A DNA stretch of 64,000 nt from Candidatus Acidiferrum sp. (GTDB taxonomy: Bacteria; Verrucomicrobiota; Verrucomicrobiia; Limisphaerales; UBA8199), in assembly GCA_035541055.1 (NCBI GenBank), contig DATKNZ010000220.1, forward strand, positions 3,992-67,991, read 5' to 3'. The translations under genes were made by a program, and so were the position numbers. Under the pieces are notes generated by a model. The model did no database searches. It saw only the letters and a list, made by a program, of their open reading frames with translations, and was not told where the DNA came from. This document shows positions 2,454-24,077 of this stretch, in pieces. Numbering within the stretch: position 1 is the first letter of the stretch; each line of letters begins with the position of its first letter.

Positions 2454-2460
2454 ACGCGCT

Positions 2461-3503: not shown

Positions 3504-3621
3504 ACCCCGGCCCAACCCGGCTGGTGCAGTGGACGCGCCGATAGCGTCTCTGCTTGTTTTCGCAGGCCTTGGGCGGCGCGCCACTGAGCAGCACCGTTGG
3601 GCGATCGGTAGCAAATTGCGT

Positions 3622-4284: not shown

Positions 4285-4401
4285 GTCACAGCCCAACCAG
4301 AGCATTGAGCCAACCGGAGGCAGCCGGTCTTCGTCTGCATTCCTGGCTCAGTGGTGGCTGCCTCCGGTGGCTCATGCTCGCCGTTCGGCTGGGGTGCCGT
4401 T

Positions 4402-5353: not shown

Positions 5354-5401
5354 CCAGATCACTGGAGCGGGCGGACCACGTTTGTTGGTGATTCGGGAGC
5401 C

Positions 5402-5866
5402 TTGGGCCGCCCGCATCGTTCAGTTCCGGCGTTCGCCGAAGTTGTGATCACCGATACACGCATCGTCCTGCGGACACCTGATCAATTCCTTGAACTCTCA
5501 AATGTCGAGAGATTCGAGGACGGTTCAGGCTACGCATGCCTGCTTAGTGCCGGCAGCATCAGCTCGGGCCGCTTTGTATGCTCAGCACATCCGTTCCATT
5601 TCAATGACCTGGAAGGATTCATCAACAGCCTGCAAGCCGCTTCTGAAGGTGTGCGAGGCAAGGCTCGTCTTGCACATGCTTACGAGAAGGACTTCATCGA
5701 GGTCGAGGTTCGTTCGTGTGGGGATGTAATGATCACGGGCTTTATTAGCGAGTTTGGCCCGCCACGCCTGGAACTACGGTTCGGGTTTGGCTGCGATCAG
5801 ACATATTTGCCCGAGTTATTGAACTCCTTGCGCGGGGTTCTGACGGAACTGGAGAGAAGACCATGA
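5402..5866 (+). CDS. Hypothetical protein (island A cargo)
   Basis: ORF opens with a TTG in the track and has no nearby ATG, so the start is uncertain. Confidence 0.4.
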   Translation: MGRPHRSVPAFAEVVITDTRIVLRTPDQFLELSNVERFEDGSGYACLLSAGSISSGRFVCSAHPFHFNDLEGFINSLQAASEGVRGKARLAHAYEKDFIEVEVRSCGDVMITGFISEFGPPRLELRFGFGCDQTYLPELLNSLRGVLTELERRP

Positions 5867-5875
5867 AAGGCAAGA

Positions 5876-6430
5876 ATGGCGAACATTCCGCCGCAGCGAA
5901 CAGGGGCGGCCATCGCTCACCTTCCCGTTATGAGCCGTAAGGGCCGATCAATTTTGGTTCTCGTCTGCGCGGCCGTCGTCTGCGTGGTGCTGGCGTGGTG
6001 GTTGGCCGTTCGGCACCTGGAAGACCTAAACGCTGCTCAGCACCTCGCCATGGAAGGGCATCCAACAGTGGAGCAGATGCTCCATTTGCTGCAATATTCC
6101 GACACAATAGTTCTAAATAATACGCTGACCCAATTTGAGCGTTCACGGAATCCAGCCGGAAAGGAACGCGCGGCAGAGTTACTTCGTCACCCTGATCGTT
6201 ATGTTTCATACAGCGCATGCCTTTACCTGGGCGCAATTGGCGATGAGCGGAGCATCCCTTATTTGATAAAAGGACTAGACCACCCGGCGTGGCGGTCCCG
6301 ACCGCGAGTGGTGAAGTACTTGAAGAGCTTAACGGGCCAAGATTTCGGTGAGGATAAGGAGGCGTGGATTCGGTGGTGGAACAGCCAGAATCCTGGGTCC
6401 GGATTTGATTTTGCTAACAAGCAGGCATAA
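5876..6430 (+). CDS. Membrane-anchored HEAT/PBS-lyase-like repeat protein
   Basis: N-terminal TM (ILVLVCAAVVCVVLAWWLAV). HEAT-like segments (SACLYLGAIGDERSIPYLIKGLDHPAWRSRPRVVKYL). Confidence 0.5.
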   Translation: MANIPPQRTGAAIAHLPVMSRKGRSILVLVCAAVVCVVLAWWLAVRHLEDLNAAQHLAMEGHPTVEQMLHLLQYSDTIVLNNTLTQFERSRNPAGKERAAELLRHPDRYVSYSACLYLGAIGDERSIPYLIKGLDHPAWRSRPRVVKYLKSLTGQDFGEDKEAWIRWWNSQNPGSGFDFANKQA

Positions 6431-6464: not shown

Positions 6465-6680
6465 AACATCCAACATCCAACATCCAAGGATGAAGACCAG
6501 TTCATTACAGAAGGAAACGAAGGGAACGAAGCGCGGGGCCGACGCGGATGGCGTGCAGACGTCTGCACGAGGCGTCGGAAGGGGGGGAGCGTGGAGCGTG
6601 GAGCGTGAAGAGGCGCAATAGCCAATCGCCGATAGCCGATAGCCAATAGCCGATAGCCGAGGGACGAGGGACGAGGGGGG
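6465..6680 (+). repeat. Composite repeat cassette C2 (contains palindrome P2 at 6553-6568)
   Basis: AACATCC x3 (6465-6487), GGATGAAGACCAGTTC (6488-6503), ACAGAAGGAAACGAAGGGAACGAAG (6507-6531), perfect GTGCAGACGTCTGCAC (6553-6568), GAGCGTG x3 (6587-6607), ATAGCCR/ATCGCCR x6 (6618-6658), GAGGGAC x3 (6659-6680). Confidence 0.95.
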
Positions 6681-6777
6681 AAAAGATTTTTCATTTTGTT
6701 GTTGCGAAGGGGGGCGAAAGATGAGTGATGAAGGGTAATCGCCTCAAAGGAGAGCAGCCGGACCTCATGAACTATCT

Positions 6778-7542
6778 ATGCAAATCAAGTCCGCTGCCGA
6801 CCTGCGAGCCTTCATCAAAGGCTTCTACGATCAGCATGTCACCGCGCTGAACGGCATCCTGGAGAAACTGCCCGAGCCGCTCAAAGGCGAACTCTCGAAA
6901 CTCCGCGACGGCCTCAACACCGCACTGGAGAAATTGCCCCCGCTGGACCAGGCGCCCGCCTCGCAAGATGCGTCCTGGGCGTTCAACTCGTTCGCCGAGG
7001 CGTGGAGCCGGATGGCCGAATACTCGGACGGGCTGCGCCAGCGGCTGGCCAGCATTGCCGGCGAGTTGCAGACGAAGGCGCTGGCGCTGAACAGCCTGGA
7101 GCAGAAGATCACCGCCGGTGAGTATATCTCGAAGGAGAAGGCCGCCGAGGCCGCGAACCTCGCCCGGACGGAAGGCGCGAACAGCATGCTGCCGGAGATC
7201 CTCGCGACGCGCAAAAGCGCGCTGGAACTGGCGGGCCTGCCGGTGCCTCCGGACAATATCCTCCACCTTCCGGGTAAGGACTACGAGACGCGCGTGACGG
7301 CCGCCAAGGATCAGGTGGGCAGGCTCAACGCCAAGGGCCTCAAGCTGGGCGGGAAGGGCAGCGCCTGGGTGACCTCGATGGCGTGGCTCGGGGCGACGGA
7401 GTTCAACGGCCAGATGACGGCCCTGGAGGAAGTGCTGGGCACAACCACGACCGCGCCCGCCAAAACGGGCGACCCGTTGCTGGGGACCGCGCCCACCGAC
7501 AACAACAACAAACCCGCGCAGCCGGCCCTCACGCTGGTGTAG
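6778..7542 (+). CDS. Scaffolding-like protein (putative)
   Basis: 254 aa, helical Ala/Leu/Glu/Lys-rich, low-complexity Thr/Pro/Asn tail. Sits two genes upstream of the capsid candidate. Confidence 0.4.
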   Translation: MQIKSAADLRAFIKGFYDQHVTALNGILEKLPEPLKGELSKLRDGLNTALEKLPPLDQAPASQDASWAFNSFAEAWSRMAEYSDGLRQRLASIAGELQTKALALNSLEQKITAGEYISKEKAAEAANLARTEGANSMLPEILATRKSALELAGLPVPPDNILHLPGKDYETRVTAAKDQVGRLNAKGLKLGGKGSAWVTSMAWLGATEFNGQMTALEEVLGTTTTAPAKTGDPLLGTAPTDNNNKPAQPALTLV

Positions 7543-7611
7543 CGCACAACCCCCACAACAACCAGACGACAACCGTAACCAGTCAATTGTCAAGAGCACA
7601 ACTCACACACT

Positions 7612-8177: not shown

Positions 8178-9428
8178 ATGAAGCCTTCCATTCAAAACAC
8201 GCTGGAGAACCTGCGGTACAAGGTCACGGCGCTAAACAGTCTGACCGCACATCGGGGTTCCCTGCGCGGGCTGGACAAGACCTTCGAGGCGGCGCTCAAC
8301 CAGACGGACGAGCAGCGGCAGAAACTCGGCAAGCTGCTCGAACGCGCCCGCCGGGGCCAGGTCGAGGCGGCCACGGAGTTGAACGCGTTGCGGACGACGA
8401 CGATTGACCTGTATGTGCGGGCGATGTCGAACTTCATCGCGTTCTTCCGCCCGGTGAACCTTGAGCCGAACGAGCAGGCGTGCTTCGTGCACACGTTCCG
8501 CAACCCGGTGGCGGTGCGCTACATGGGGCAGGACGGCGGTGTGAAATCCGTCAAGGCGGTCAAGGCGCAGCGCCCGATCTTCATTGATATGCGGGAGATC
8601 ACGTCGGACGCGGTGGGCTACCAGATCCGGGACCTGAACCTGGGCCCGGACGTGGCGGCCGCCGCGCAGGCGACGGTGGATATCGGCTGGGACATGGCAA
8701 ACAAGGTGGACTTCGAGGCGTACACGATGATGACCTCGGGGGAATCAACGCTCGGCACGGGCTACGAGGGCTACAGCATTTACGGGCCGTTCAACCTTAC
8801 GGGGACGGAGCTCAGCCGCACGTGGATTCCGAACGACCGCATCCTGCCGTCCAACCTGCCGACGACCAACGACCTGGTCCTCAGCGACAATGGCAGCGGC
8901 GAGGGGCAGAGCAACCAGTTCCGGCTGGCGGTGTTCCGCGCCATCCTGAAGTACTGCGAGGCGTGGGGGAACATTTGGGGCACGCCGATCCGCCCGACCG
9001 GGATGATCCTGGTGTCGTCCGCGGACGTGACCGACCTGGCGAGCGAGATCACGCCGACGAGCCTGATCTTCCCGAACGCGGTGGCGGAGGGAATCCTGCA
9101 GAACTACTCGCAGGTGGATTACATGAACGTCCGCTGGACGCTCGTGCCGGACGTGACGCTGCCGAGCGGCGTGTGCTACCCGGTGCTCAACCGTCCGGTG
9201 GGCGAGGTCTATTACAAGCCAGCGTTTGACGAGGAGTTCGTCGAGACGGACCGCAAGCGCAACTGGGAGGAGCGCAGCTCTTTGAAGGTGCTGAACTTCG
9301 CGATCCCCGAGCCGTGGCGGGTGAACGCGCTACGCGTCACCTACGCGGACCTGGACGAGCTCAAGGCGCAGGCCAAAGCCAAGCTGGCGAGCGCCAAGGC
9401 GGCGGCGAAGGCCAAGGGCCGGAAGTAG
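8178..9428 (+). CDS. Major capsid protein candidate (HK97-fold type)
   Basis: 416 aa with a charged helical N-terminal ~100 aa (delta-domain-like). Position is after the scaffold-like ORF, and a 12-bp GC hairpin follows. No homology search done. Confidence 0.5.
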   Translation: MKPSIQNTLENLRYKVTALNSLTAHRGSLRGLDKTFEAALNQTDEQRQKLGKLLERARRGQVEAATELNALRTTTIDLYVRAMSNFIAFFRPVNLEPNEQACFVHTFRNPVAVRYMGQDGGVKSVKAVKAQRPIFIDMREITSDAVGYQIRDLNLGPDVAAAAQATVDIGWDMANKVDFEAYTMMTSGESTLGTGYEGYSIYGPFNLTGTELSRTWIPNDRILPSNLPTTNDLVLSDNGSGEGQSNQFRLAVFRAILKYCEAWGNIWGTPIRPTGMILVSSADVTDLASEITPTSLIFPNAVAEGILQNYSQVDYMNVRWTLVPDVTLPSGVCYPVLNRPVGEVYYKPAFDEEFVETDRKRNWEERSSLKVLNFAIPEPWRVNALRVTYADLDELKAQAKAKLASAKAAAKAKGRK

Positions 9429-9442
9429 GCCACCCCAACCCG

Positions 9443-9472
9443 GGGGGCGGGCGGCTTTCACCGCCCGCCCCC
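9443..9472 (+). terminator. Strong GC hairpin after the capsid gene (terminator or mRNA-stabilising stem)
   Basis: GGGGGCGGGCGG-cttca(6 nt loop)-CCGCCCGCCCCC, a perfect 12-bp stem 15 nt after the stop. No U-tract follows. Confidence 0.5.
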
Positions 9473-9478
9473 TCAAAC

Positions 9479-9506
9479 AATAGCCAATAGCCAATAGACA
9501 ATAGCC
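9479..9506 (+). repeat. ATAGCCR-type heptamer array x4 (C3)
   Basis: aatagcc aatagcc aatagac aatagcc, ending 6 nt before the ATG at 9513. Confidence 0.95.
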
Positions 9507-9512
9507 AAAACT

Positions 9513-10356: not shown

Positions 10357-10675
10357 GAGCGTGGAGCGTGGAGCCCCTTTCACAGAAGGAAACGAAGTAA
10401 ACGAAGAGGCAAAGCGTGAAGACGCCAAACGCAACGACGCCGGCGGTGGCCTGGAGCTGCCGCCGGCTTGCCAATTCTCTACAGAAGGAAACGAAGGGAA
10501 CGAAGGGAAGAGAGGGGGAAACATCCAACATCCAACATCCAACATCCAACATCCAACATCCAAGGAGAGAAACAGGGCTCGCGGGGATGAAGACCAGTTC
10601 TGGCGGCATAGCCAATAGCCAATCGCCGATAGCCGAGCCAGAGAACTCAGGGCTCGCGGGGACGCTTGCCCTCCC
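10357..10675 (+). repeat. Composite repeat cassette C4
   Basis: GAGCGTG x2.5 (10357-10374), CACAGAAGGAAACGAAGTAAACGAAG (10381-10406), GC hairpin GCCGGCGG..CCGCCGGC (about 10438-10466), ACAGAAGGAAACGAAGGGAACGAAGGGAAG (10481-10510), AACATCC x6 (10520-10561), truncated GGGCTCGCGGGG + GGATGAAGACCAGTTC (10575-10600), ATAGCCR x4 (10608-10634), GGGCTCGCGGGGACGCTTGCCCTCCC (10650-10675). Confidence 0.95.
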
Positions 10676-11239: not shown

Positions 11240-11363
11240 AGCGTGGAAGCGTTAAAGCGTAGAGGCGGTGAAGCGAACGAAACCGGAAAACGTGCAGACG
11301 TCTGCAAGAGGCGGGTGGAGGGTTGAGGGAAATAGCCAATCGCCAATCGCCGATAGCCGATCC
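11239..11363 (+). repeat. Composite repeat cassette C5 (contains palindrome P3 at 11292-11307)
   Basis: AAGCGTNN octamers x5 (11239-11278) starting at the stop codon, GTGCAGACGTCTGCAA (11292-11307), GTGGAGG GTTGAGG (11315-11329), ATAGCC/ATCGCC x4 (11332-11358). The ATG at 11369 follows. Confidence 0.95.
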
Positions 11364-11368: not shown

Positions 11369-12271
11369 ATGAGCGACCTGGTGCCGTTTTTCCTCCATGA
11401 GGCGGTGCTCAGCCTTTACCCGCTCGGCGACGACGATGGGATACTGACGGACGCGGCGGTGTGGCAGGGGGCCCTGGCTAACGGGCTGCGGGCCTCGCTG
11501 GAATACGAGGAGCTGCTGGGGGCGTCGAGCGGGGACAAATACCAGCGGGCGCACCACGTGGACGAGCGGCACGTGCTGGAGATTGAGCGGACGTGGCTGC
11601 TGCGGGGGCCGGTGCTGGCGGACCCGGGCCATGGGCCGGGACTGGACGCGGTGCCGGGGCGCAACCAGCGGTATGCGCTGGAGATGGTCTGGTTCAGCCA
11701 GGGCTACTGGTATCGGCGCTGGTACTGGGGGGTGACGGCGCGGCTGACGGGGTGGGATTCGGTGCGGACGCTGGAGTTCGGCCAGAAGCAAAGCTGGCGG
11801 GCGGAGCGGTTCACGGAGGAAGGCGGGTATGTGCCGCAACCGATTTATGTGCCGCCCGGGGGCGGTGGCGGGAGCAGCAACGGAGGGACGGTGCCGCCGC
11901 CCGTCGTGACGCCGCTACCGGAGGACACGGAGCAGGCGATTGGGTTCTTCCACGAGAACCCGCTCGTCGCGGGCGAGTACCTGCTGGGCCGGTATCGCTG
12001 GCCGGTGGCGGTGACGTGCACGGCAGCGCGGGTGGTGGCGTTCGCTCCGCAGGGGTCGCCGGTGGTGCTGGGGCTGGAGGTCAATGGCGTGCTCACGGGT
12101 GACATCCTCACGCTGCCGGTGGGCACGGCCAATACGGAAGTGACGGTGGACGTGACACTGGCGGTGAGCGTGCCGCCGCTCGCGGATGTGCGGTGGAAGA
12201 TACTGTCGGCGCCCGATGCGGCGGATTCGGCGTGGCAAGTGGCGCTGGGAATGCAGGTGAGGCCCTTGTGA
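11369..12271 (+). CDS. Virion protein with C-terminal LEVNG beta-domain (paralog set)
   Basis: 300 aa with a Gly/Pro linker (PPGGGGGSSNGGTVPPPVV). The C-terminal ~108 aa (nt 11942-12268) is similar to the C-terminus of 14883..15824 and the N-terminus of 12318..13097. Confidence 0.6.
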   Translation: MSDLVPFFLHEAVLSLYPLGDDDGILTDAAVWQGALANGLRASLEYEELLGASSGDKYQRAHHVDERHVLEIERTWLLRGPVLADPGHGPGLDAVPGRNQRYALEMVWFSQGYWYRRWYWGVTARLTGWDSVRTLEFGQKQSWRAERFTEEGGYVPQPIYVPPGGGGGSSNGGTVPPPVVTPLPEDTEQAIGFFHENPLVAGEYLLGRYRWPVAVTCTAARVVAFAPQGSPVVLGLEVNGVLTGDILTLPVGTANTEVTVDVTLAVSVPPLADVRWKILSAPDAADSAWQVALGMQVRPL

Positions 12272-12279: not shown

Positions 12280-12311
12280 GAGGATAGAGGATGGAGGATT
12301 GAGGATGGAGG
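12280..12311 (+). repeat. GAGGATD heptamer array x4.5 (C6), SD-like
   Basis: gaggata gaggatg gaggatt gaggatg gagg. It provides GGAGG 8 nt upstream of the ATG at 12318. Confidence 0.9.
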
Positions 12312-12317
12312 AAAGCC

Positions 12318-13259: not shown

Positions 13260-13330
13260 CACAGAAGGAAGCGAAGGAAACGAAGGGGAAATAGCCAATC
13301 GCCGATAGCCGATAGCCGATAGCCTATAGG
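13260..13330 (+). repeat. Composite repeat cassette C7
   Basis: CACAGAAGGAAGCGAAGGAAACGAAGG (13260-13286), then atagcc aatcgcc gatagcc x3 tatagg (13291-13330). Confidence 0.95.
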
Positions 13331-13354
13331 CGCCCGTAGCCACCTATATACTAT

Positions 13355-13792
13355 ATGTCACCGGACCTCGACTATATCCAGTACCGGCTGGCGCTGGCGC
13401 TGCAAGAGGCGGGCAGCGACGTGACGGTGCGCTGGATTGACACGGCGGGAGGGACGCTGGACGTGACGACCGGGGCGGTGGTGGGCGGCGTGCAGACGCC
13501 TGCAAGCGGCGTGCTGCGAGCGCTCGGGGTCGAGGAGCTGGCGCGGTCGGTGGTGCGCCAGTACGCGGAAATCCAGGCCGGCGACCTGCTGCTGGAGATT
13601 GACGCGGCGGCGCTCATCACGAAGGACGATGGCTCGACGGTGTGCCTCGATGACCTGGACGGGCCGAGCTTCCTTTGGGGCGGACAATGGTACCAGCAGA
13701 AGGAAGTGGGGGAGGGGCTGGCGGCGGCATGGAACGCGGTGGTGGGGAACCAGAGGCTTTACCGGACGCTGCTTTTGCGGAGGGGGAGTTGA
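13355..13792 (+). CDS. Hypothetical head-tail joining region protein (145 aa)
   Basis: ATG ORF with size and position typical of head-closure/adaptor proteins. Contains palindrome P4 in-frame. Confidence 0.5.
   Translation: MSPDLDYIQYRLALALQEAGSDVTVRWIDTAGGTLDVTTGAVVGGVQTPASGVLRALGVEELARSVVRQYAEIQAGDLLLEIDAAALITKDDGSTVCLDDLDGPSFLWGGQWYQQKEVGEGLAAAWNAVVGNQRLYRTLLLRRGS
13490..13505. repeat. Palindrome copy P4 (GTGCAGACGCCTGCAA) inside CDS
   Basis: Read as V-Q-T-P-A in ORF 13355..13792. Confidence 0.85.
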
Positions 13793-13894
13793 GGCGTGGG
13801 AGCGTGGAAGCGTTGGAGCGGGGGAACATCCAACATCCAACATCCAACACCCAACACCCAATGGGGATAGCCAATAGCCAATAGCACATAGCCA
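13793..13894 (+). repeat. Composite repeat cassette C8
   Basis: G-rich GGCGTGGGAGCGTGGAAGCGTTGGAGCG directly after the stop (13793-13820), AACAYCC x5 (13825-13859), ATAGCC-type x4 (13867-13893) running straight into the ATG at 13895. Confidence 0.95.
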
Positions 13895-14767
13895 ATGATA
13901 GGAACGCGGATCAGCACGAACACGGAGGAGGTGAAGGGCCGACTGATGCGGCTGGAGGCCGAGATGCATAAGGCGTTTTTGCGGGCGCTGGAGGTGGACT
14001 ATTGGCGGCCGGTGCTCAAGCGGCGTGCTTACGTCGTGCTGAACCGGGAATGGGCAAAGGAGTCGGACGAGGGGCGGCGGCGGTTCTACCAGACGCTTTC
14101 GCACCAGATCGTGGGGACAGTGGTGGGGATGCTGTTTGATTCGGGGGCCTGGTTCGTGGCGGCGGTCCCGGACGCGGCGGTGGACGCGAGCGCGCTCTGG
14201 CCGGACCTCGCCCGGGCAGCGCAGTTCAACGCGATGACCCAGCCCACAGGCAAACCCGGCCGCCCCACGGACCTGGCACGGGGACTGGCGGGAGCGCCCG
14301 AGCTGCTCTACCCCGAGGAGCACGGCAACCTGGAGCGGGTGCGGCAGACGATCCGGGATTGGTGTGCGCTGGAAAAGCACCTGAAGGCCGACCGGGACTA
14401 TAACGCGGACGGGACCGTCAAGACGCCCGAGCAGATTGCCGAGCGCATCATGGAGATCCTGGGCGTCGGCAAAGAGGTGAAGGCACGCACGGCTGTCATG
14501 GAGCAGGAGGCCAAGGAATTGTTCGCGGCGATCAACGACTGGCTGGCGGGCAATGGGGCGACGTCGCCCGAGATGGCCCGGGCGGTGAATAACGCTGACG
14601 CGGTGCAGGGCGGAAAGCCGCCGCCGCCCCGGCTGGACCCGGACTCGGCGCGGGAATGGCTGGAACGCGTGCTGGGCGATTGGGTGGAGACGACACGCAA
14701 GCTGCTGCCGGGGCGCGTTCAGAAGGAACTGGGCGGGGTGCGGCAGATGATGGCGAAGGGACGGTAA
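13895..14767 (+). CDS. Hypothetical phage protein (290 aa)
   Basis: ATG ORF, helical and charged, function unknown. Confidence 0.55.
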   Translation: MIGTRISTNTEEVKGRLMRLEAEMHKAFLRALEVDYWRPVLKRRAYVVLNREWAKESDEGRRRFYQTLSHQIVGTVVGMLFDSGAWFVAAVPDAAVDASALWPDLARAAQFNAMTQPTGKPGRPTDLARGLAGAPELLYPEEHGNLERVRQTIRDWCALEKHLKADRDYNADGTVKTPEQIAERIMEILGVGKEVKARTAVMEQEAKELFAAINDWLAGNGATSPEMARAVNNADAVQGGKPPPPRLDPDSAREWLERVLGDWVETTRKLLPGRVQKELGGVRQMMAKGR

Positions 14768-14769
14768 CC

Positions 14770-14879
14770 GTGGTGCGTGGTGCGTGGTGCGTGGTGCGTG
14801 TTGCGTGAAGAACCCAGATAGCTAATAGCCGACCCAAATAGCCGATAGCCGATAGCCGATAGCCAAATAGCCAATAGCC
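14770..14879 (+). repeat. Composite repeat cassette C9
   Basis: GTGGTGC x5 (14770-14807) beginning 3 nt after the stop, then about 8 ATAGCY units (14818-14879) ending 3 nt before the ATG at 14883. Confidence 0.95.
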
Positions 14880-14882
14880 GAT

Positions 14883-15824
14883 ATGAACTGCTTAGAGAGT
14901 CCCGCGATCACGGAACAGACGATGGAGTCGGCGACTTACGCGCTGCTGGCGGAATGGCTGGGGCAATGGTTCGACGGGGGCACACACACGCTGGGGACAC
15001 AACCGGCGCGAGTGTGGCCGCTGGTGCAGCCAAGCTTTGGGCAAGGCCCGATCCAGCAGCCGTTGCAGGGCAGCATCGAGATACGCGTGGTGATGCAGCC
15101 GCGGGCGGAGGCGATGTCCACGGTGGATACTTCGATGTATGCGGGGAAGCAGATCTTGGATTATGTGACCCTGAATTTCTGGATTCGGGCGAAGATGACC
15201 GGACGGGGGCAATCGCAGTTGCAGGCGCGGACGGTGGGCGAGCTGCTCAAGGCACTACTCACGCATCCTGATTCGAGGTATTTGCTGGCGCAGAAGGGGG
15301 TCCATCACCTGCAACCGCAAGGGCCGGCGACGCCGATGCCGAGCACGGAATGGGCGGAGCGGCTGATGGTGTGCGCGGCGCAGTTGCATTACCCGGTGTC
15401 GTTCGGGCCGGACGCGCCGCTGCCGCCGGAGCGGCCGGGCTTCACCTACGAGGTGCTGTTCTACGAGGCGGACCCGGTGCTGGCAGGCGATTACCTGCTG
15501 GGCACTTACCGGTGGAGCGCGCCCATGAGGCTGAGCGGGATGCGGGCAGTGGGCTGGGCGTCACAGACGGCGGGCGTGACGCTGGGGCTGGAGGTCAATG
15601 GCGTGCTGACAGGGGACACGGTGACGCTGCCGGTGGGCGAGCCGAACGTGGAGGTGCAGGCGACGGCGGCGGTGAACCTGGAGATTGATCCGGGGGCTAT
15701 CGTGCGGGTGAAGGTGCTCGCCGCGCCGGACGCGGTGGACACGGCCTGGCATGTGAGCCTATCGCTGGCGGTAGCCCCGGCCTGCGCGTGCTTCCGCTTC
15801 CCTCCTCAACCTGGAAATGGATAG
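14883..15824 (+). CDS. Major tail protein candidate with C-terminal LEVNG (Ig-like?) domain
   Basis: 313 aa, the last large virion gene before the chaperone/tape-measure pair (ignoring island B). C-terminal domain at nt 15453-15779 is paralogous to 11942-12268. The last ~14 codons lie in lower-GC island sequence. Confidence 0.4.
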   Translation: MNCLESPAITEQTMESATYALLAEWLGQWFDGGTHTLGTQPARVWPLVQPSFGQGPIQQPLQGSIEIRVVMQPRAEAMSTVDTSMYAGKQILDYVTLNFWIRAKMTGRGQSQLQARTVGELLKALLTHPDSRYLLAQKGVHHLQPQGPATPMPSTEWAERLMVCAAQLHYPVSFGPDAPLPPERPGFTYEVLFYEADPVLAGDYLLGTYRWSAPMRLSGMRAVGWASQTAGVTLGLEVNGVLTGDTVTLPVGEPNVEVQATAAVNLEIDPGAIVRVKVLAAPDAVDTAWHVSLSLAVAPACACFRFPPQPGNG

Positions 15825-15983
15825 TTGGTCTCGGGCTCGGAAACCCGACCTCATCAAACCTTGCCAGCATCAGGTCTTCTTGCTTGCCATCTGAACGACG
15901 TCAGAAATGCTTGATCCCCAGCCAGGTATCCGGCACAATAAGGACGTTAATAAGGCACGGCGTCAATCAACGCACCGAGTTTT

Positions 15984-16913
15984 ATGGACCTCAAAAACCG
16001 AAGACCTCTCTGCGTCTGGGCATCGCTCCATACAATCACCGTCATGGCTACCGTGGTCGCTTTTCTCGCGTCCGCTCGCGCCGACATAATTTACGTCTCC
16101 GACTCTGGCAACAACACGATCAGGGCCTTCAACCCAAACGGCTCCAGTTCCGTGTTCGCTACAAATGGATTGTCTACTCCGGAAGGCATGGCGTTCGACA
16201 GTGGCGGCAACCTCTATGTTGCAAACGATGGCAACAATACTATCACGAAGTTCACGCCCGCGGGCGTCGGGTCGGTCTTCGCTAGTACCGGGTTGATCAA
16301 CCCGATAGGTTTGGCTATTGACAACGCCGGTAATGTTTACGTTTCAAACCAAGGGACATACGACTCCCAAAGACAACGGTACAACTGCTACATCGAGAAG
16401 TACACCCCCAGTGGGGCCGCTTCAGTCTTTGCGGACGCCACGGGCAAGAACCCAGATGGTTTGAGTTGTGACAGCGCTGGCAACATTTATGTTGCGTACA
16501 GGTCGGGCCCTGCAGAAATAATGGAATTCACCCCAGGGGGCACAGGCTCAGTGTTCGCCACCAACGGCGCGAAGGTTCCGGCTTTCCTGACCTTCGACCA
16601 TGCAGGCGACCTCTACGCGTCCTATGCAACAGCGGGAATTGCAGAATTCTCGCCGTCGGGGACGATTCTCGGCACTATCACTAACGGAATGCAGAATTGC
16701 GTTGGCATAGCCTTAGATAGCGTCGGCGACCTCTACGTGGCGAACTTTTTCAGCTCTGGATATATCGAGAGGGTCACGCCAGACGGGGTGGCTTCGGTCT
16801 TCGCGAGTGGTTTGCCGTGGCCCGTCGGCATAGCCCTCATCCCGGAGCCAGCAAGTTGGGCGTTGCTGAGCGTAGGCACAGTGGGACTCCTCTTTGCCCG
16901 CCGCCGAGGGTAG
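15984..16913 (+). CDS. NHL-repeat beta-propeller protein with PEP-CTERM anchor
   Basis: Repeated (Y/I)V(S/A)(D/N)xGNNTIxxF motifs, N-terminal signal-like segment, C-terminal IPEPASWALLSVGTVGLLFARRRG (PEP motif + TM + Arg cluster). Confidence 0.75.
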   Translation: MDLKNRRPLCVWASLHTITVMATVVAFLASARADIIYVSDSGNNTIRAFNPNGSSSVFATNGLSTPEGMAFDSGGNLYVANDGNNTITKFTPAGVGSVFASTGLINPIGLAIDNAGNVYVSNQGTYDSQRQRYNCYIEKYTPSGAASVFADATGKNPDGLSCDSAGNIYVAYRSGPAEIMEFTPGGTGSVFATNGAKVPAFLTFDHAGDLYASYATAGIAEFSPSGTILGTITNGMQNCVGIALDSVGDLYVANFFSSGYIERVTPDGVASVFASGLPWPVGIALIPEPASWALLSVGTVGLLFARRRG

Positions 16914-16961
16914 AACTGTCGCAGGGATGTTGGGCAAAAGGAGCTGTGAAACAGAGACGTC

Positions 16962-17558
16962 ATGAAGTACTCCGCTAGTACCCTGGGCGCATTCCTAGGG
17001 TTGCTGGTGCTGGAGCAGGAGCAGAAGGCTATTTGCTTCAAAGCTGTGAATGACGTTCTCGGGCTGGGCCTCGACGGCCAGGACAGGTTTTGGTTCGGTT
17101 TATCGATCTGGCGGCTGATCATCTGGGAGCTGGTGATGGAACAAGATGCGACATTGACGCCAAGCGAGACGGAGGAAGTGCGCAAAGCGATGCGCGAGGG
17201 GGTGTTCCAATCCTATGCTAACACCAACGTGGATCCACTGCAGCTTCTCTGCGATAGCTCTGAACTTGAGAGTGTGTTGGGTCCGCGGGCCGGCGGTTCA
17301 GGTAGAGACCTCTCTCCAGGAGAGCTGGTGGAGGCCACGTTCTATGTACGCCTAGAACGGGCGCGCAGTGACCTTGCCCGATGCTCGGGCGTCATTCCCG
17401 GGAAGGCACTGATTCTCTTTGGCGAGGCGTTTCTGGAACAGGTGTGCGGGGAAGCCAGGCTGTCGTGTGACAGGGCAACCGCGATTGAGGTGCTCGAAAT
17501 AGTGGTGCGGCAGCATTACGTAGGCGCGCTCGACATGTGGCGAAAGCTGAGGGGTTGA
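16962..17558 (+). CDS. Hypothetical protein (island B cargo)
   Basis: ATG ORF preceded by AAAGGAG, no named motif. Confidence 0.5.
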   Translation: MKYSASTLGAFLGLLVLEQEQKAICFKAVNDVLGLGLDGQDRFWFGLSIWRLIIWELVMEQDATLTPSETEEVRKAMREGVFQSYANTNVDPLQLLCDSSELESVLGPRAGGSGRDLSPGELVEATFYVRLERARSDLARCSGVIPGKALILFGEAFLEQVCGEARLSCDRATAIEVLEIVVRQHYVGALDMWRKLRG

Positions 17559-17592
17559 GGGCTTTGCACGCGGGCGCCCAGTGCAGGACTCA

Positions 17593-18066
17593 TCAGGCGC
17601 TGCGAGGCCGAATCCGACCATTCCGATTGTCTGGTGGCGAAAGGCGGTCGATCAGGAACTCCTCTAACGCAGGCGCCTCGAAGGCCATGCCTGCAGGAAC
17701 GCGCAATGCCGCCACAAACCGGGGCTGCTCGCTCCAGCCAGAGTGAACGACCCTGCAGCCACGGCCTGGCGTTTCCTTGAACCAAGTGGAAAGTCGGCTG
17801 CCGATGTTGGCACCCATGGAGGCTTTGCCGACATAAAGCAGCCGCACCCCCGTACCGAAAATGAAGTAGACGCCTGGATCGGCTCCGCAAGGCCACCCTT
17901 CCGGCCACTTGGAAGTCACCTCTGGTGCCAGTTCCAAATCGGGAAAAAGAGCCTGTAAACCGCTCATTGGTTCCAGCGGCGGGAGGTCGTGTCGGCGGAG
18001 GTGCTGTTTGTAATAGTCCAGTGCAGCGGCGATGTCGGTGAGGCTCTTATGATCGGTTGTTGTCAT
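17593..18066 (-). CDS. GIY-YIG nuclease-domain protein (putative)
   Basis: GVYFIFGTGVRLLYVGKA (GIY..YVG spacing), then SRLSTW Arg, then EEFLIDRLSPPDNRNG (Glu/Asn). Confidence 0.6.
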   Translation of the reverse strand: MTTTDHKSLTDIAAALDYYKQHLRRHDLPPLEPMSGLQALFPDLELAPEVTSKWPEGWPCGADPGVYFIFGTGVRLLYVGKASMGANIGSRLSTWFKETPGRGCRVVHSGWSEQPRFVAALRVPAGMAFEAPALEEFLIDRLSPPDNRNGRIRPRSA

Positions 18067-18178
18067 AGACTCGCTGGTTAACCCTGATTAGCGAAACCAA
18101 TGCTCTGATATCGGAGAGTCGGACGCTCCGAGACCTTCATGAGTTCTTTGTAGCTGTTCGGGCGCCGATGTCAAAGCT

Positions 18179-18221
18179 GAATAGCCGATGTGCAGACGTC
18201 TGCAAGGGCTGGGTTGAGGGG
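18179..18221 (+). repeat. Mini cassette C10 with palindrome P5 (18190-18205)
   Basis: gaatagccgat GTGCAGACGTCTGCAA gggct GGGTTGAGGGG, at the right edge of island B. Confidence 0.9.
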
Positions 18222-18324
18222 TGCTGCAAAAAGTTGGGATTGTCGTTGACCGAGGGGGCGGAATATGCGGCGATGGGGGTGAGGACAGCCGGGCTCTCCA
18301 AGCGCATTGCGCGCACCCTTTAGC

Positions 18325-19281: not shown

Positions 19282-22200
19282 ATGAGCGAGAGCGGCAGCC
19301 CGATTTTGACCGAGAGCATCAAGCTGGACATTCAGACGCCGAAGCAGACGGGTCTGGAAAAGCTGCTGGAGCAGCTCGACCAGGTGGCGATTGCGGCCCG
19401 GCAGGCGAACAAGGCGCTGGCGGGAATGGAGCAGCAGGGCCAGCCGAAGTTCGCCTCGATCAAGGGGCTGACGAAAGACATTCAGGAGTTGCAGAAGGGC
19501 ATCGGAGGCAGGGCGCTCTCGCTGTCGCTGCCGGACTTGTCGAAGGCTTACGGGCTGCACCTGAAGGCGTTCAAGGATTTCCTGGCGGAGCGGGATGACC
19601 TGTTCAATAAGAGCACGTTTCGCAAGGGGGCCTTCAGCGGAGCGCCCTCGGCGGCGGCGGCGATCTTCGCTTTTGACAACCAGAGCATCGCCCGGCGCAA
19701 GAAGCTGCTGGCGGACGCGCTGACGCCCACGGTCAGCTCCGTGCAGGGGATCAAGCTGGGCAAGACGGGCAAGGTAGCGCTGGACGTGGCGGGGGCGCAG
19801 GTGGAGGCGAGGCTGGTGGGGAAGGTGCAACTGGCGGTGCCGGCGGAACAGGTGGTGACGGCGCCGGCGGCGGGCCGAACGGACGCTCGCCCATCGCCGA
19901 GAGCCAAGCCCGCGGCCCGAATAGCCGATAGCCAATCGCCGATAGCCAAAGTCCCGGGGGCGGGCGTGCAGGCGTCTGTAGAGGGACCAATCAAGCTGGT
20001 CATACCGGCAGCGCAAATACAGGCGAGCGTGGAGGGGATGATTACGGCGGCGGCGGCGACGGCCAGCGGCGGGGTGGTGCGCGATGCCAAGACGGGGAAG
20101 TTTGTGAGTACCGGGGGCGGAGCGGGCACGAGTACAAGCACGAGGACGAGGACGAGCACAGGGACGAGCAAGGCGCTGGGAGGGTTGAATGTCGGGCCGC
20201 AGGCGGGGGAGTTTGAGCGGCGGCGGATTGAGGACGCCAGGACGGGGCGCGTGCGCGAGACGGTGGCGCGGCGGGACGCGTCGGGGGCCATCGTGGAGGA
20301 GACCTGGGACAATGCTTACGACGCCTTCAAGGTGGCGCGGACGACGAGCCGGTCGGTGACCGGGATTTCGCCGCTGCAACAGTTCCGCACGATTCGCACG
20401 CTGAACGAGGAGGTTTACCGGCAGATGGTGGGGGCGCTGCCGGCGCATGACAAGGTGGGGCGGGGCTTCGGCACGTCGCTGGCGATGACGCAGCAGGCCA
20501 ATGCGCTGGAGGGAATCTTTACGGCGCATCCCGAGCTGGCCGCCGCCCTCGGTCCGCAGCAGGCGGGGAAACTGCAAGCGATCCTGAGCGCGCAGGCAGC
20601 CACGCTGCGCGCACGGGCGGGCGCGGTGAGCGAGGACGCGACGCAAGCCTACGTGAAGATGCTGGACCAGGCGGAGGAGCGGCGGTCCAAGCGGTCGGTG
20701 AGCACGCAGGAAAAGGCGCTGCGGATGTCCGGCGGGCAGGCCGGGCACGCTATGCACATGGCGGAGGGGGAAGCGAAGATCTACGAGCTGCAGACGCCGG
20801 ACGTTTACCGTTCCGGGGCGACCAAGGCTCACTACTTCGGCCTGAAGGCGCAGGGGGCCGACCAGGCGGCGGCGATTATCCAGTCGGCGCTGGCGGCGAA
20901 TCCGCGGGCCAGTGCCGACCTGCGGCGGGAGATGACCGAGAAGATGGAGGAGCACCTGCTCAACGCGAGGATCTTCCGGGCGGCGGGCGGCGTTGCCCCG
21001 GGAGCGCGGCCGGCCACGGGCGAATACGGGCGGTTCCTGGCGGGGCTGAAGGCGTTCACGCCGATGGGGATGCTGGCCAATACGACGAAGGTCACGGGGT
21101 GGGCGGCGGCGGTGACCGTGCTCTACAAGAGCGTGGAGCTGGCGCGGTATTCGCTGGGGCGGTTCATCGAGGTGGGCGAGGAGACGGCCAGGCTGGACGT
21201 GGTGTTCCGAAAGGTGGGCGGGAGCACGCAGGAGTTGACGGGCGACATTTTGAAGCTGGCTTCGGCCAATGCCCGGGATGCGGCCCAGGCGATGGACAGC
21301 GCGACGGAATGGTCGCGGCTGGGGCTGACACGCAGGCAGGTGGGCGAGGCGACCAAGGCAAGCCTGACGGCGGCCAACGTGGCCCACATGAAGCCCGAGG
21401 AGACGACCAAGCAGCTCTCGACACTCATGCACGTGTTCGAGTTGGACGCGACCGAACTCAACGGGGTGATGGGGATGCTGACGGCGACGAGCCAGCGATA
21501 CAATGTGACGCTCGAGGATTTGTTCAGCGGGCTGGACCGGAGCGCGGCGACGGCCAAGGCGGCCAAGGTGAGCCTGGGCGAGCTGCAAGCCTTGATCGCG
21601 GTGATGGTGGGCCGCACGGGGCAGACGGGCATCATCGTGGGCAACACGCTGAAGAACATCTTCACGCAGTTCAGCAACCCGACGATGCAGCGATACCTGC
21701 GGGTGCGCGGCATCGAGACGATGGCGACCGAAGGGGAGAACATGGGGCAGCTCAAGTCGGGCAGCCAAATCCTGCGAGATGTGTTCGTGCGGTACTCGGG
21801 GATGAAGCCGGCTGAGCAGGCGGACTTGTCCCGCAACCTGGCGGGGCGGTTGCAGGTGGGCCGGTTCCAAAGCCTGATGGAAGGCTACGCCGACGCGCAA
21901 AAGCTGGCGGTGGATTCGCAGCTCAAGCTGAACGCGGCACAGGAAGCCAATACCCGCATACTGGGGACGCTCAAGGCGCAACTGACGGCGCTGCGGGTGG
22001 AATGGGACCGGATGATGATGACGGCCGGGCAGTCGTGGGGGCCGTGGGCGGCAGAGCAGGTGCGCTATGGCAAGAACATCCTGCGGTCGATCAACGCGGG
22101 TGGGGAGGTGGAATCCCCCCGCACTATATACCTGCGGAAACAAGGCCTCGTTCCGTCGTCGGAGCAAGAGGCCGCCGAGCGAGCCGCGGCGCGGCGCTGG

Positions 22201-23973
22201 CTGGAGGGGCAGATCAAAGCCACGGGCCGCGTACCGGGCTTCTGGCAGACGTTCGCGACTGTAGCGCGGACCAACAGCGGCATGAGGGTTTGGGACTCCG
22301 AACGGCTGAAGCTGCTCTACGAGACACCTTACGAGCGGGGCACGGAGGAGTTCCAGAACAAGGTGCAGGAGCTGCACGGGCAGGCAGAGTCGGCCGCGCT
22401 CAAGGCACGGTTGTTCGAGACGGTGGGCACGGCGCTGCCCGGGGCGATGCGGACCAATCCCGAGATGGCGCGCTCGATGGCCCGGGCGGCCGGGTCGGAG
22501 ATGAGCGCGGCGGACGCCCAGCGCCTAAATGAAATGATGACGGCGGGAAACACGGGCGGCGTGCGGGACCTGCTCAACGTGCAGACGTCTGCGGCGAAGC
22601 GGCAATCGGCGGAAGCGGCGGCGGCGGAATTGGCCGAGCGCGACCGGCGGGCGGCCGAGGCGAAGGCGCAACTCGCCAAATACGACGCGGACATCCAGAA
22701 GGCGCAAGGGCCGAACGCGACGGAGAGGGAAAAGGCCGGGCTGGGGCAGCTCATCCAGGCCCGCGAGGAATTGACGCGATCCATGGACGCCAACACGGAA
22801 GCGCGGACGCGGGCGCTGGCGGCCATCGAGGAGGAGCTGGGCAAGACGGAGCAGGCGCTCTGGATCAAGCAGCAATACGTGGACCTGCTCAAACAGCAGG
22901 AGATGCTGATGCAGAACGTGGGGCAGCTCAGCGAGCAAGGAACGCCCGAGTCGATGGGGTCGCGGCTGGATGCGCGGGTGGGGTCGCTGCGGGATGAAGT
23001 GGCGCTATTGGAAGCCCAGCGGGACCGGCTGGAGCAGCACGCCAAAGAGCTGGGCACGCCCGAGGCCGAGCAGGCCAAGGACGCCGTGCAGAAAATGCTG
23101 ACCGAAAAGCAGGGAGAATTGGCGGCGCAGAATTCGCCGCAGTTGCGGCAGCTCGCGGCGATTTACGATGCGCGGACGATTGCGGCGCATCGGGCGCAAA
23201 CGGACGTGGCGGGGTGGGCGGTGGGGCCGACGGAGTCGCACCGGCTGTTCGCACAGGAGGCCCGCATACGGGAAGAACTGGCGGCTGCCCGGGCGCGGCA
23301 GGCCACGGGCGGGCTGAGCGATGCCGAGGCGACCCGGGCCAAGCAGCTCGAAGTGGACCTGACGCGGACGCAGGAGCAGATCCAGACGCGCATTGTGGAC
23401 CTGGCGCGGCAGGAACGGCAGATCCGCATGGACTCGCTGCGGGAGTTCAACAAGGGAATCCTGCTGGCCGGCCCGGGGGAGATGCTCCAGCGGCTGCAAG
23501 TGAGCCAGATGCTCCACCGGCAGGTGACGCCGGGCGAGTTCTTCGCCATGTCGCCCGAGGTGCGCCGGATGTATTTCGAGGCGCGGGGCGGCGACGCGGG
23601 CATGACGAACCGCTGGGAGCAACGCGAGATGGCCCGGACGGGGCATCGGCGCTGGAGCGAGCCGATGGACGAGGCCGTCCACGCGGTGGCCCGCGAACAG
23701 GTGGACCGCTGGGGGGCGGTGCAACGGCGGAACACGCTGGGCAGCCTGACGACGCTGCCCGACATGCCGCTGCCCTCGCTCAAGGAGGCGCGGCAACTGG
23801 CCGACAGCCTGACGCTGATGAACGGCGGGGTGCTGACGGTGACCCAGGCGCTGGCCAATCTCTCCCGCGTGGTGGACGCGCTGAACCATCGGTTTGGAGG
23901 GGGCGAGCCGCGGGCGCAAGGGCGGCGGTTTGATGTGAGCGCGGGGTTTGCGCCGGGGGCGCCGGGGTTCTGA
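19282..23973 (+). CDS. Tail tape measure protein
   Basis: 1563 aa, Ala/Gln/Glu/Arg-rich and helical. Tape-measure core-like segment (LGLTRRQVGEATKASLTAANVAHM...GRTGQTGIIVGNTLKNIFTQF). Follows the chaperone pair. Confidence 0.85.
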   Translation: MSESGSPILTESIKLDIQTPKQTGLEKLLEQLDQVAIAARQANKALAGMEQQGQPKFASIKGLTKDIQELQKGIGGRALSLSLPDLSKAYGLHLKAFKDFLAERDDLFNKSTFRKGAFSGAPSAAAAIFAFDNQSIARRKKLLADALTPTVSSVQGIKLGKTGKVALDVAGAQVEARLVGKVQLAVPAEQVVTAPAAGRTDARPSPRAKPAARIADSQSPIAKVPGAGVQASVEGPIKLVIPAAQIQASVEGMITAAAATASGGVVRDAKTGKFVSTGGGAGTSTSTRTRTSTGTSKALGGLNVGPQAGEFERRRIEDARTGRVRETVARRDASGAIVEETWDNAYDAFKVARTTSRSVTGISPLQQFRTIRTLNEEVYRQMVGALPAHDKVGRGFGTSLAMTQQANALEGIFTAHPELAAALGPQQAGKLQAILSAQAATLRARAGAVSEDATQAYVKMLDQAEERRSKRSVSTQEKALRMSGGQAGHAMHMAEGEAKIYELQTPDVYRSGATKAHYFGLKAQGADQAAAIIQSALAANPRASADLRREMTEKMEEHLLNARIFRAAGGVAPGARPATGEYGRFLAGLKAFTPMGMLANTTKVTGWAAAVTVLYKSVELARYSLGRFIEVGEETARLDVVFRKVGGSTQELTGDILKLASANARDAAQAMDSATEWSRLGLTRRQVGEATKASLTAANVAHMKPEETTKQLSTLMHVFELDATELNGVMGMLTATSQRYNVTLEDLFSGLDRSAATAKAAKVSLGELQALIAVMVGRTGQTGIIVGNTLKNIFTQFSNPTMQRYLRVRGIETMATEGENMGQLKSGSQILRDVFVRYSGMKPAEQADLSRNLAGRLQVGRFQSLMEGYADAQKLAVDSQLKLNAAQEANTRILGTLKAQLTALRVEWDRMMMTAGQSWGPWAAEQVRYGKNILRSINAGGEVESPRTIYLRKQGLVPSSEQEAAERAAARRWLEGQIKATGRVPGFWQTFATVARTNSGMRVWDSERLKLLYETPYERGTEEFQNKVQELHGQAESAALKARLFETVGTALPGAMRTNPEMARSMARAAGSEMSAADAQRLNEMMTAGNTGGVRDLLNVQTSAAKRQSAEAAAAELAERDRRAAEAKAQLAKYDADIQKAQGPNATEREKAGLGQLIQAREELTRSMDANTEARTRALAAIEEELGKTEQALWIKQQYVDLLKQQEMLMQNVGQLSEQGTPESMGSRLDARVGSLRDEVALLEAQRDRLEQHAKELGTPEAEQAKDAVQKMLTEKQGELAAQNSPQLRQLAAIYDARTIAAHRAQTDVAGWAVGPTESHRLFAQEARIREELAAARARQATGGLSDAEATRAKQLEVDLTRTQEQIQTRIVDLARQERQIRMDSLREFNKGILLAGPGEMLQRLQVSQMLHRQVTPGEFFAMSPEVRRMYFEARGGDAGMTNRWEQREMARTGHRRWSEPMDEAVHAVAREQVDRWGAVQRRNTLGSLTTLPDMPLPSLKEARQLADSLTLMNGGVLTVTQALANLSRVVDALNHRFGGGEPRAQGRRFDVSAGFAPGAPGF
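19881..19981 (+). repeat. Cassette-like block embedded in-frame in the tape measure ORF (with palindrome P6 at 19966-19981)
   Basis: GGACGCTCGCCC (19881-19892), ATAGCCR/ATCGCC x4 (19921-19947), GTGCAGGCGTCTGTAG. Translated as TDARPSPRAKPAARIADSQSPIAKVPGAGVQASVE. Confidence 0.9.
22579..22594. repeat. Palindrome copy P7 (GTGCAGACGTCTGCGG) inside tape measure
   Basis: Read as V-Q-T-S-A. Confidence 0.85.
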
Positions 23974-24001
23974 AATAGCCAATAGCCAATAGCCAATAGC
24001 C
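23974..24001 (+). repeat. AATAGCC x4 array (C12) starting at the tape measure stop codon
   Basis: tgA AATAGCC AATAGCC AATAGCC AATAGCC. A weak palindrome relative ACAGGACGTCTGTAAG lies at 24049-24064. Confidence 0.95.
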
Positions 24002-24077
24002 GAAAACGACCAGAGACAGCGTTGCGACGTGTGCAACAGCAAACCACTACAGGACGTCTGTAAGACCTATACGACCT

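Follow-up and report, generated by a model that had tools for sequence, protein, structure and literature searches.

ATAGCCR arrays at the late-operon junctions of a prophage: one family of intergenic heptanucleotide simple repeats, possibly acting as passive spacers

Background

Heptamers are the most over-represented unit length among simple repeats and are intergenic, according to a 2007 survey by Mrazek and colleagues as far as it is relayed in two later papers (PMC4679880, PMC4692102). In marine Beggiatoaceae and in some Cyanobacteria and Bacteroidetes, scattered across phyla, the heptamer TAACTGA forms tandem units of 2–6 copies, mostly intergenic and with no predicted RNA structure (MacGregor 2015, PMC4679880). 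Its forward copies lie a few nucleotides from start codons that lack a Shine-Dalgarno sequence and provide stops in all frames, and open reading frames (ORFs) hold the reverse orientation only; the candidate binders put forward were S1, cold-shock proteins and CsrA, and TAACTGA was argued to be special (PMC4679880). An intergenic excess of heptamers, GGGAATC in Xanthomonas and GGGGAYT in Nostoc, was described by Rehm (2015, PMC4692102) together with a slippage hypothesis; the nearer ORF lies on the 5' side of these repeats (at a mean of 28 nt in xanthomonads), on either strand. Here we describe ATAGCCR, a heptamer that forms tandem arrays at gene junctions of a prophage within a stretch of 64,000 nucleotides, hereafter called the window (contig DATKNZ010000220.1 of assembly GCA_035541055.1, positions 3,992 to 67,991).

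In Cluster K mycobacteriophages, a short conserved sequence, the start-associated sequence (SAS), is found immediately 5' of many start codons; it is a single 13-nt motif with Shine-Dalgarno-like content, is not tandem, and is conserved among relatives. Unstructured CA-rich or A-rich sequences serve as translational enhancers, and initiation without a Shine-Dalgarno sequence can depend on S1. Heptad repeats may also be regulator sites, as are the ToxR TTTTGAT heptads in the ctxAB promoter of the CTX phage.

Results

The ATAGCCR arrays of the window are one family of intergenic heptanucleotide simple repeats, kin to the short tandemly repeated repetitive (STRR) sequences of cyanobacteria, the Xanthomonas and Nostoc heptamers and the TAACTGA repeats of Beggiatoaceae. 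Our preferred reading, to which we give a probability of roughly 0.5, is that they are passive, unstructured, stop-rich spacers produced by slippage and cassette duplication and filtered by selection. ATAGCC occurs 60 times on the + strand of the window and 10 times on the - strand, where about 11.6 occurrences per strand would be expected from base composition. Enumeration of arrays with at least three units, one mismatch being permitted per unit, yielded 15 arrays of 3–6 units each, all on the + strand and all within 1095–33485, and Tandem Repeats Finder (TRF) located arrays where the initial annotation had placed them. Head-to-tail 7-nt copies exceed chance, which makes these arrays heptanucleotide simple repeats.

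The focal intergenic gap (13793–13894, 102 nt) separates the stop codon of a 145-aa gene (13355–13792) from the ATG of a 290-aa gene (13895–14767), both on the + strand and neither with a family match, and consists almost wholly of three + strand tandem arrays. Directly past the upstream stop codon lies a G-rich array of the GGAGCGT/GGAAGCGT type with about four units (13794–13825; family D4), followed by a G-free AACATCC/AACACCC array of about 5.3 units (13825–13861), the middle element of the cassette. The ATAGCCR array comes last (13867–13894); its four units, three exact copies plus ATAGCAC, place TAG in all three frames, and no nucleotide separates it from the ATG at 13895, a start that was confirmed by an independent gene call.

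The initial annotation had argued that a 7-nt unit, 7 and 3 having no common factor, brings its TAG into each reading frame in turn. This arithmetic is right: per-frame enumeration of stops established that every example it had listed closes all three frames. Among the 15 arrays, however, complete closure is a property of eight (those beginning at 1095, 1179, 6618, 9480, 13291, 13867, 14838 and 23975), whereas the remaining seven bear ATCGCC, AGAGCC or ATTGCC variants and close just one or two frames. Without the ATAGCC stops, six of 11 intergenic regions would stay unclosed in at least one of the three frames. The complement of the arrays is open in nearly every frame and encodes peptides of the SAIGY/LLAIGYW type, its sole stop lying in flanking sequence in one frame of the 14812–14883 stretch; this openness accounts for the long antisense ORFs in the window, as had been proposed. 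TAG is an ordinary stop codon here. It terminates seven of 18 phage genes, and reassignment of TAG was rejected on that ground.

Of the 15 arrays, 13 lie between genes; the tape-measure gene contains one of the other two in frame, and an SNF2 helicase gene carries the second in antisense orientation. At the six starts for which the initial annotation had claimed array-adjacent initiation, the measured distances are 0–10 nt. The five-unit array at 1179–1213 ends 10 nt 5' of the ATG at 1224, and the four-unit array at 9480–9507, which follows a hairpin at 9442–9473, ends 5 nt 5' of that at 9513. Four ATAGCC/ATCGCC units (11332–11359) end 9 nt 5' of ATG 11369; the focal array lies 0 nt from ATG 13895; a single unit at 14825–14831 followed by arrays at 14838–14865 and 14867–14879, all downstream of a CGTGGTG array of 5.6 units (14769–14807), ends 3 nt 5' of ATG 14883; and five ATAGCC/AGAGCC units (24431–24465) end 10 nt 5' of ATG 24476. 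Independent gene calls on the public contig match these starts with one exception, 9552 being called instead of 9513; in alignments with homologues, the match begins at residue 1 of the 9513 form. Somewhat farther from their starts are a six-unit array (13291–13332, 22 nt 5' of ATG 13355) and a four-unit ATAGCCR/ATCGCC array (10608–10635, 64 nt from the start at 10700). The last ATAGCCR array falls in the start-proximal fifth of the free space in eight of 11 intergenic regions (0–22 nt from the start; binomial p ~2e-4), and an ATAGCCR array is likewise the 3'-most, start-proximal element in 8/11 junctions.

Five of the 13 intergenic arrays lie away from any start. They comprise three units in mid-gap, 108 nt from the next start (1095–1115); six units 118 nt from the next start (6618–6659), within a 347-nt mosaic that also holds AACATCC, GAAGGAAAC, the palindrome described below, GGAGCGT and CGAGGGA; four exact ATAGCCA units 102 nt from the next start (23975–24002); four units at 27349–27376; and four ATAGCC/ATCGCC units in mid-gap (27571–27598). 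Two of the five begin directly past a stop codon, namely 1 nt past that of the tape-measure gene (23975) and 11 nt past the one at 27337 (27349). The two arrays inside genes are an ATAGCC/ATCGCC array in the tape-measure ORF (19921–19948) and another at 33458–33485, antisense in the C-terminal tail of the minus-strand SNF2 gene (33289–35925).

A GGAG, GAGG or AGGA tetramer at positions -18 to -5 is present in just two of 18 phage leaders, in keeping with the earlier statement that no Shine-Dalgarno sequence lies between array and ATG, and host and phage genes alike mostly lack one. In all seven members of this phage family, the 25 nt 5' of starts have an A content of 0.23–0.42 (about 0.2 in coding sequence) and a G content of 0.14–0.28 (0.31–0.39 in coding sequence), and such A-rich, G-poor leaders occur in members with and without repeats. 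The arrays adjoining starts thus match the leader composition in general use and do not constitute a special leader type. In predicted centroid folds the arrays stay unpaired (z -0.2 to +2.4), the only strongly structured element being the hairpin 3' of the capsid-like gene, and sequence next to starts has the features of an S1-type leader, being G-poor, A or C/A-rich, predicted single-stranded, and devoid of a Shine-Dalgarno sequence. The proposal of an S1-type leader is therefore compatible with the data as regards position, predicted lack of pairing and absence of a Shine-Dalgarno sequence, but not in the sense of a dedicated or required element, given the array-less relative L145 and the family-wide leader composition. 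The further idea of two alternative repeat-built leader types is weakened: only one of the three purine-rich arrays cited for it (12280–12312) puts GGAGGA at Shine-Dalgarno distance. Pairing of G-rich with C-rich arrays was considered and rejected, the folds being no more stable than those of shuffled sequence.

Thirteen genes of the sister phage L145 are syntenic with the window, at 43–80% amino-acid identity, and this phage has no heptamer arrays. At four of six compared junctions, L145 has -4 to 21 nt where the window counterparts have 46–356 nt of arrays; of the other two, one is a 72-nt gap holding only a hairpin and one contains an additional small gene. In place of the focal 102-nt gap, L145 has a 4-nt overlap between the homologue of the 145-aa gene and the gene that follows. 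Since L145 has the same genes without arrays, the arrays appear, as judged from gene content and order, to be dispensable for expression. L025 and L146 (capsid 76% identical) show a mosaic of the same style in which homologous junctions differ in part of their units; in L025 it is an AACATCC array, not ATAGCCR, that abuts an ATG, and an order of G-rich and then A/C-rich arrays is also present. Remnants, other units or no arrays were found in L023, L026, L147 and L198–L200. Homologous junctions carry other units in L025, L146, L198–L200 and L023, and none in L145 and L147. The comparison of these sequences indicates that the arrays are lineage-specific, with fast turnover between close relatives.

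The late-operon junctions of the window are mosaics of about eight tandem-repeat families with units of 7–9 nt, a 16-bp palindrome and a GC-rich hairpin element. Besides ATAGCCR, with its 15 arrays, the families are AACATCC, GGAGCGT/GAAGCGT, GAAGGAAAC, CGTGGTG, GAGGATG, CGAGGGA and GGGTTGA; AACATCC, GGAGCGT-type and GAAGGAAAC arrays each occur at several to six loci. In the usual order, G-rich arrays lead, in many cases across or after the stop codon, GAAGGAAAC arrays lie mostly in the middle of gaps, and the A/C-rich AACATCC and ATAGCCR arrays come last. No array that directly abuts a start codon in the window is G-rich or structured. Composite modules repeat between distant junctions at 89–91% identity (families D3 and D8). 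The 75-nt AACATCC plus ATAGCCR composite at 1134–1208, for example, is 89% identical to 13822–13896, including the joining sequence (family D3).

Arrays are also present within coding sequence. In the tape-measure ORF (19282–23973), a stretch resembling an intergenic cassette, with the ATAGCC/ATCGCC array and a degenerate palindrome next to it, is translated (especially 19855–19980). The array reads in frame as ARIADSQSPIAK and is the sole sense-oriented case within an ORF, the variant unit keeping the frame open; the L147 tape-measure protein has nothing that corresponds to residues ~192–218. A segment flanking this stretch, VxxxGxVxLxIPAxQ, is duplicated. The minus-strand SNF2 helicase gene contains three + strand heptamer arrays within its coding sequence: GAGGGTT and GGGTTGA arrays give segments of the PQPSTLNPQPS type near residues 47–57 and 535–545, and the ATAGCC array gives SAIGYRRSAIS near residues 813–822, all at linker positions between or outside Pfam domains. 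A polarity at the DNA level was not deduced from the common orientation of these arrays, which a stop-codon filter explains equally well. The long + strand ORFs over this gene (33610–34302 and 34306–35775) are spurious.

Three tandem copies of ATAGCCR matched 20 contigs of the IMG/VR database, as compared with eight and 26 for two composition-matched control heptamers and 16 for three copies of AACATCC. ATAGCCR x3 was found in more than 117 genomes of many phyla, and the contigs sharing the unit have no proteins in common with this phage. Because the control heptamers are about as frequent, ATAGCCR has no special status, and the notion of a privileged, horizontally spread unit was rejected. 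In the window and at least 140 fetched loci from many phyla, period 7 dominates: it accounts for 437 rows, whereas periods 8 and 9 have 54 and 84. What is seen in general is thus the already known excess of heptameric simple repeats.

An ORF picker based on G+C content at third codon positions (GC3), validated on the gene calls of the window, was used to classify 100 ATAGCCR arrays from other GC-rich genomes; a cruder test for an ORF start after the array was dropped as uninformative, random positions in GC-rich DNA scoring equally. None of the 100 arrays lies in a sense ORF and 15 lie in antisense ORFs, from which it follows that stop content filters where arrays survive. As to the idea of a stop barrier, the arithmetic and this survival filter stand, but there is no sign of selection for the barrier as such. 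Among downstream neighbours, 31 run in the same direction as the array and 26 in the opposite one, which is no preference, and about 11–13 of the 100 arrays (~13%) end within 26 nt of an ATG. Across these other genomes there is no general polarity of the arrays towards gene starts.

Inverted pairs of the form (ATAGCCG)n ... (CGGCTAT)n, 50–100 bp apart and in both orders, were seen in Gemmatimonadota, Chloroflexota and other phyla (loci L014, L020, L034, L042, L078, L087, L090, L093, L122, L130, L132 and L136). Such pairs might fold into long hairpins, or they might flag genes that converge or diverge.

The first ~40 kb of the window is a prophage, whose late operon is co-directional on the + strand and encodes a tape-measure protein (PF10145). 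A minus-strand module holds the SNF2 helicase and an integrase (38825–40162, -) beside tRNA-Leu(CAA) (40234–40320), which bounds the prophage on the right and is its likely attachment site. Pfam and PHROG scans of at least 20 phage proteins gave matches only to the tape-measure domain, a glycosyltransferase and an NHL/PEP-CTERM protein encoded in one of the islands described below; as nearly all phage proteins lack family matches, no candidate for a repeat-binding protein can be named among them. The capsid-like protein has no relative in IMG/VR (pattern scan) or in a cultured-phage collection, none of the cultured phages is related to the prophage, and a single metagenome scan returned five loci only. 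An Rfam scan of the window found nothing beyond tRNA. A scan for promoters and terminators gave no enrichment at arrays, with one promoter-like site against 1.4 expected between 6 and 16 kb.

Three islands of lower GC content and low skew (~2250–6430, 15825–18300 and 30000–32500) are without any array of period 7–9 and are likely to be later insertions (morons). The product of an island gene at 16044–16913 is an NHL-repeat protein that has a PEP-CTERM anchor. In the host part of the window (24 kb), a single heptamer array and a small number of short period-9 repeats are present, and the host genes that flank the prophage belong to the PSCyt1/PSCyt2/PSD1 and DUF1501 types typical of Planctomycetes and Verrucomicrobia. 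The NCBI label of the metagenome-assembled genome, 'Candidatus Acidoferrum sp.' (Acidobacteriota), may be unreliable given flanking genes (8178–9428, 41950–44499).

The 16-bp palindrome GTGCAGACGTCTGCAC (up to three mismatches) is present 14 times in the prophage and not at all in host DNA, with 0.46 expected. Its sites are at 2255, 6553, 11292, 13490, 18190, 19966, 22579, 26021, 27544, 29710, 32680, 33390, 35378 and 38376. It occurs in every long relative (L145, L146, L025 and L026), often directly past stop codons, and its position within the 145-aa gene is kept (13490 in the window, 11045 in L145, 15061 in L025); it looks like a candidate recognition site specific to this phage family. A 29-nt GC-rich hairpin, GGGCTCGCGGGGACGCTCGCCCTCCCGGG, lies in prophage junctions (10650, 18449, 24383 and 27387) and in host intergenic DNA (46873 and 55665) and in none of the related phages, and is probably a host element similar to repetitive extragenic palindromes (REP) that colonised the prophage.

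The strong GC hairpin at 9442–9473 (13 bp; region z = -3.1) is directly 3' of the capsid-like gene, a position kept in array-less relatives (L145 ~7520–7550, L147 ~2045–2070). It may be an attenuator or RNA stabiliser that sets an excess of capsid protein. In relatives, the gene that heads the structural block has a conserved promoter-like motif, TTGAC(G)G-N-CGCCAAAGATGCGTGAA(G/C)GG, upstream of it (L026 796–857 and ~19410–19450; L145 ~4860–4900); in the window, a degenerate copy (6690–6735) lies upstream of the gene at 6778. The late genes 11369–12271 and 14883–15824, in which segments 11944–12142 and 15458–15656 are 72% identical in nucleotide sequence, both match the same gene of L147 and are probably paralogues within the structural operon.

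Discussion

The reading that we favour, in which the arrays are passive spacers, would work as follows. Composite repeat cassettes would have inflated the late-operon junctions of a tRNA-Leu-integrated prophage, with units gained and lost through replication slippage and whole cassettes copied from junction to junction by recombination. Selection would merely filter the products: with TAG in three frames, ATAGCCR would persist outside sense coding sequence or antisense in genes, and beside start codons only G-poor, A/C-rich, unstructured arrays would be tolerated. Host and phage family appear to initiate without a Shine-Dalgarno sequence from A-rich, G-poor leaders, and a start-abutting array would then be a passive spacer and an unstructured ribosome-loading leader that uncouples neighbouring genes. 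Such arrays would be neither a dedicated nor a necessary signal, and three-frame closure would be a by-product.

Three observations weigh against this account. The p-value for start proximity rests on junctions that are not independent, because they belong to one operon with shared duplicated cassettes. Over the arrays, L021 and L022, two other assemblies of this phage, do not differ from the window, so that no copy-number polymorphism was seen among three assemblies. Finally, the recurrence of the same few units at 15 junctions in a fixed order is more orderly than pure slippage predicts, and could reflect recognition by a factor.

That last point leads to the rival that survives best, although we hold it to be unlikely: the arrays would be active translational elements, specific mRNA binding or standby sites for S1, a cold-shock protein or a dedicated RNA-binding protein, as MacGregor proposed for TAACTGA, which boost or regulate initiation without a Shine-Dalgarno sequence and tune output by unit number. 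The start-proximal position at 8/11 junctions, the lack of Shine-Dalgarno sequences and of predicted structure, and the reuse of the same units at many junctions, also in L025 and L146, are what such an element would produce; the ~11–13 arrays of unrelated genomes that end within 26 nt of an ATG point the same way, as does the loss of the overlap coupling seen in L145, after which downstream genes would have to initiate afresh behind the arrays. However, L145 and other relatives would, from their gene content, express these genes in the absence of arrays, homologous junctions of relatives have differing units, and orientation shows no preference elsewhere (31 versus 26). Furthermore, 5/13 intergenic arrays in the window are distant from a start or directly past a stop, and among phage proteins nearly all of which are without family matches no binding protein suggests itself.

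A purely neutral or selfish expansion with no role in expression, in which start proximity reflects only the internal order of a block-duplicated cassette, seems to us still less likely. Cassette duplication, the patchy distribution among close relatives, the arrays inside coding sequence and the ordinary status of the unit all agree with it. Against it stand the order of G-rich and then A/C-rich arrays, which is conserved and also found in L025, and the finding that no G-rich or structured array abuts a start; together these suggest at least purifying selection on start-adjacent sequence.

A more elaborate proposal, which we regard as improbable, makes one joint claim of a 'junction code'. 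Ordered cassettes of G-rich and A/C-rich arrays would be read by S1, a cold-shock protein, Rho or another factor; array-mediated re-initiation and polarity control would replace the overlap coupling of the sister phage; and unit number would determine in what ratio virion proteins are made, the host being one that makes no use of Shine-Dalgarno sequences.

Functions at the DNA level are very improbable, whether the arrays are taken as sites bound by a regulator or as hot spots of recombination delimiting the modules exchanged in phage mosaicism. The arrays do lie at gene boundaries, and units are common to the window phage, L025 and L146. TRF also lists periods 14 and 21 (three units make 21 bp, about two helical turns), and inverted pairs 50–100 bp apart are frequent in other genomes. 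Nevertheless, promoter-like sites are not enriched at the arrays, which occupy almost every junction within one long co-directional operon; the strict strand asymmetry and the exclusion from sense ORFs indicate a constraint at the RNA or coding level; and no evidence of exchange breakpoints was obtained.

Least probable of all is the suggestion, made in the initial annotation, that C-rich, G-poor, unstructured arrays are Rho utilization (rut)-like sites that load Rho when the downstream gene is untranslated and so impose polarity on the late operon: AACATCC arrays, G-free, fit it better, and at two junctions the AACATCC plus ATAGCCR tracts (13825–13894 and 1137–1223), predicted unpaired, reach 70–87 nt at a C/G ratio of 2.6–3.1, but ATAGCCR alone is modestly G-poor, with a C/G ratio of 1.1–1.9 over 21–42 nt and one G in every unit, which makes it on its own a weak rut candidate, most junctions have no C>G tract of 60–80 nt, and relatives lack arrays.

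If the arrays are only tolerated spacers, the sister phages offer a clean natural experiment, with coupled overlaps in one and repeat junctions of 50–350 nt in the other, and simple repeats can freely remodel operon architecture in hosts that initiate without Shine-Dalgarno sequences. The locus also explains the difficulties of short-read assemblies and gene callers in such regions, where contigs break at arrays and spurious long antisense ORFs appear. Should the arrays be true leaders, TAACTGA would no longer be the only example of heptamer repeats as ribosome-loading sites, and ATAGCCR would be a second, independent one.

Among known systems, the heptameric class of long simple sequence repeats (LSSR) and STRR sequences is matched in that ATAGCCR arrays are intergenic, involve a few genome-specific units at many loci and vary among close relatives. 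They differ from the Xanthomonas and Nostoc heptamers in being start-proximal, strictly co-oriented with the operon and set in a prophage; the GGGTTGA arrays of the window, for their part, resemble quadruplex-prone G-rich heptamers. In contrast to the SAS, ATAGCCR is tandem, lacks a Shine-Dalgarno sequence and is not conserved in position. The window leaders are like S1-type enhancers in being G-poor, A/C-rich and predicted single-stranded, in a host that rarely uses Shine-Dalgarno sequences, but the leaders of relatives share this composition without repeats, so that repeat structure is not required. Unlike ToxR heptads, the arrays are found at almost every junction of one co-directional operon, with no excess of promoter-like sites.

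TAACTGA offers the closest parallel, and both the stop-barrier and the leader ideas had already been published for it (PMC4679880). ATAGCCR resembles it in its forward, start-adjacent position without a Shine-Dalgarno sequence (8/11 junctions in the window; ~13% of arrays elsewhere), its stop-bearing forward strand with ORF copies antisense, its predicted lack of structure and its scattering over phyla. It differs in the unit itself, in being concentrated in one prophage and not chromosome-wide, and in being one of about eight families in ordered cassettes. Moreover, whereas MacGregor argued that TAACTGA is special, the recurrence of ATAGCCR across phyla does not exceed that of two arbitrary control heptamers; with control arrays about as common, the recurrence of one unit across phyla is no evidence of homology or transfer. 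What is unusual here is local: the concentration in a prophage backbone, the presence of several families in ordered cassettes, and a sister genome without arrays.

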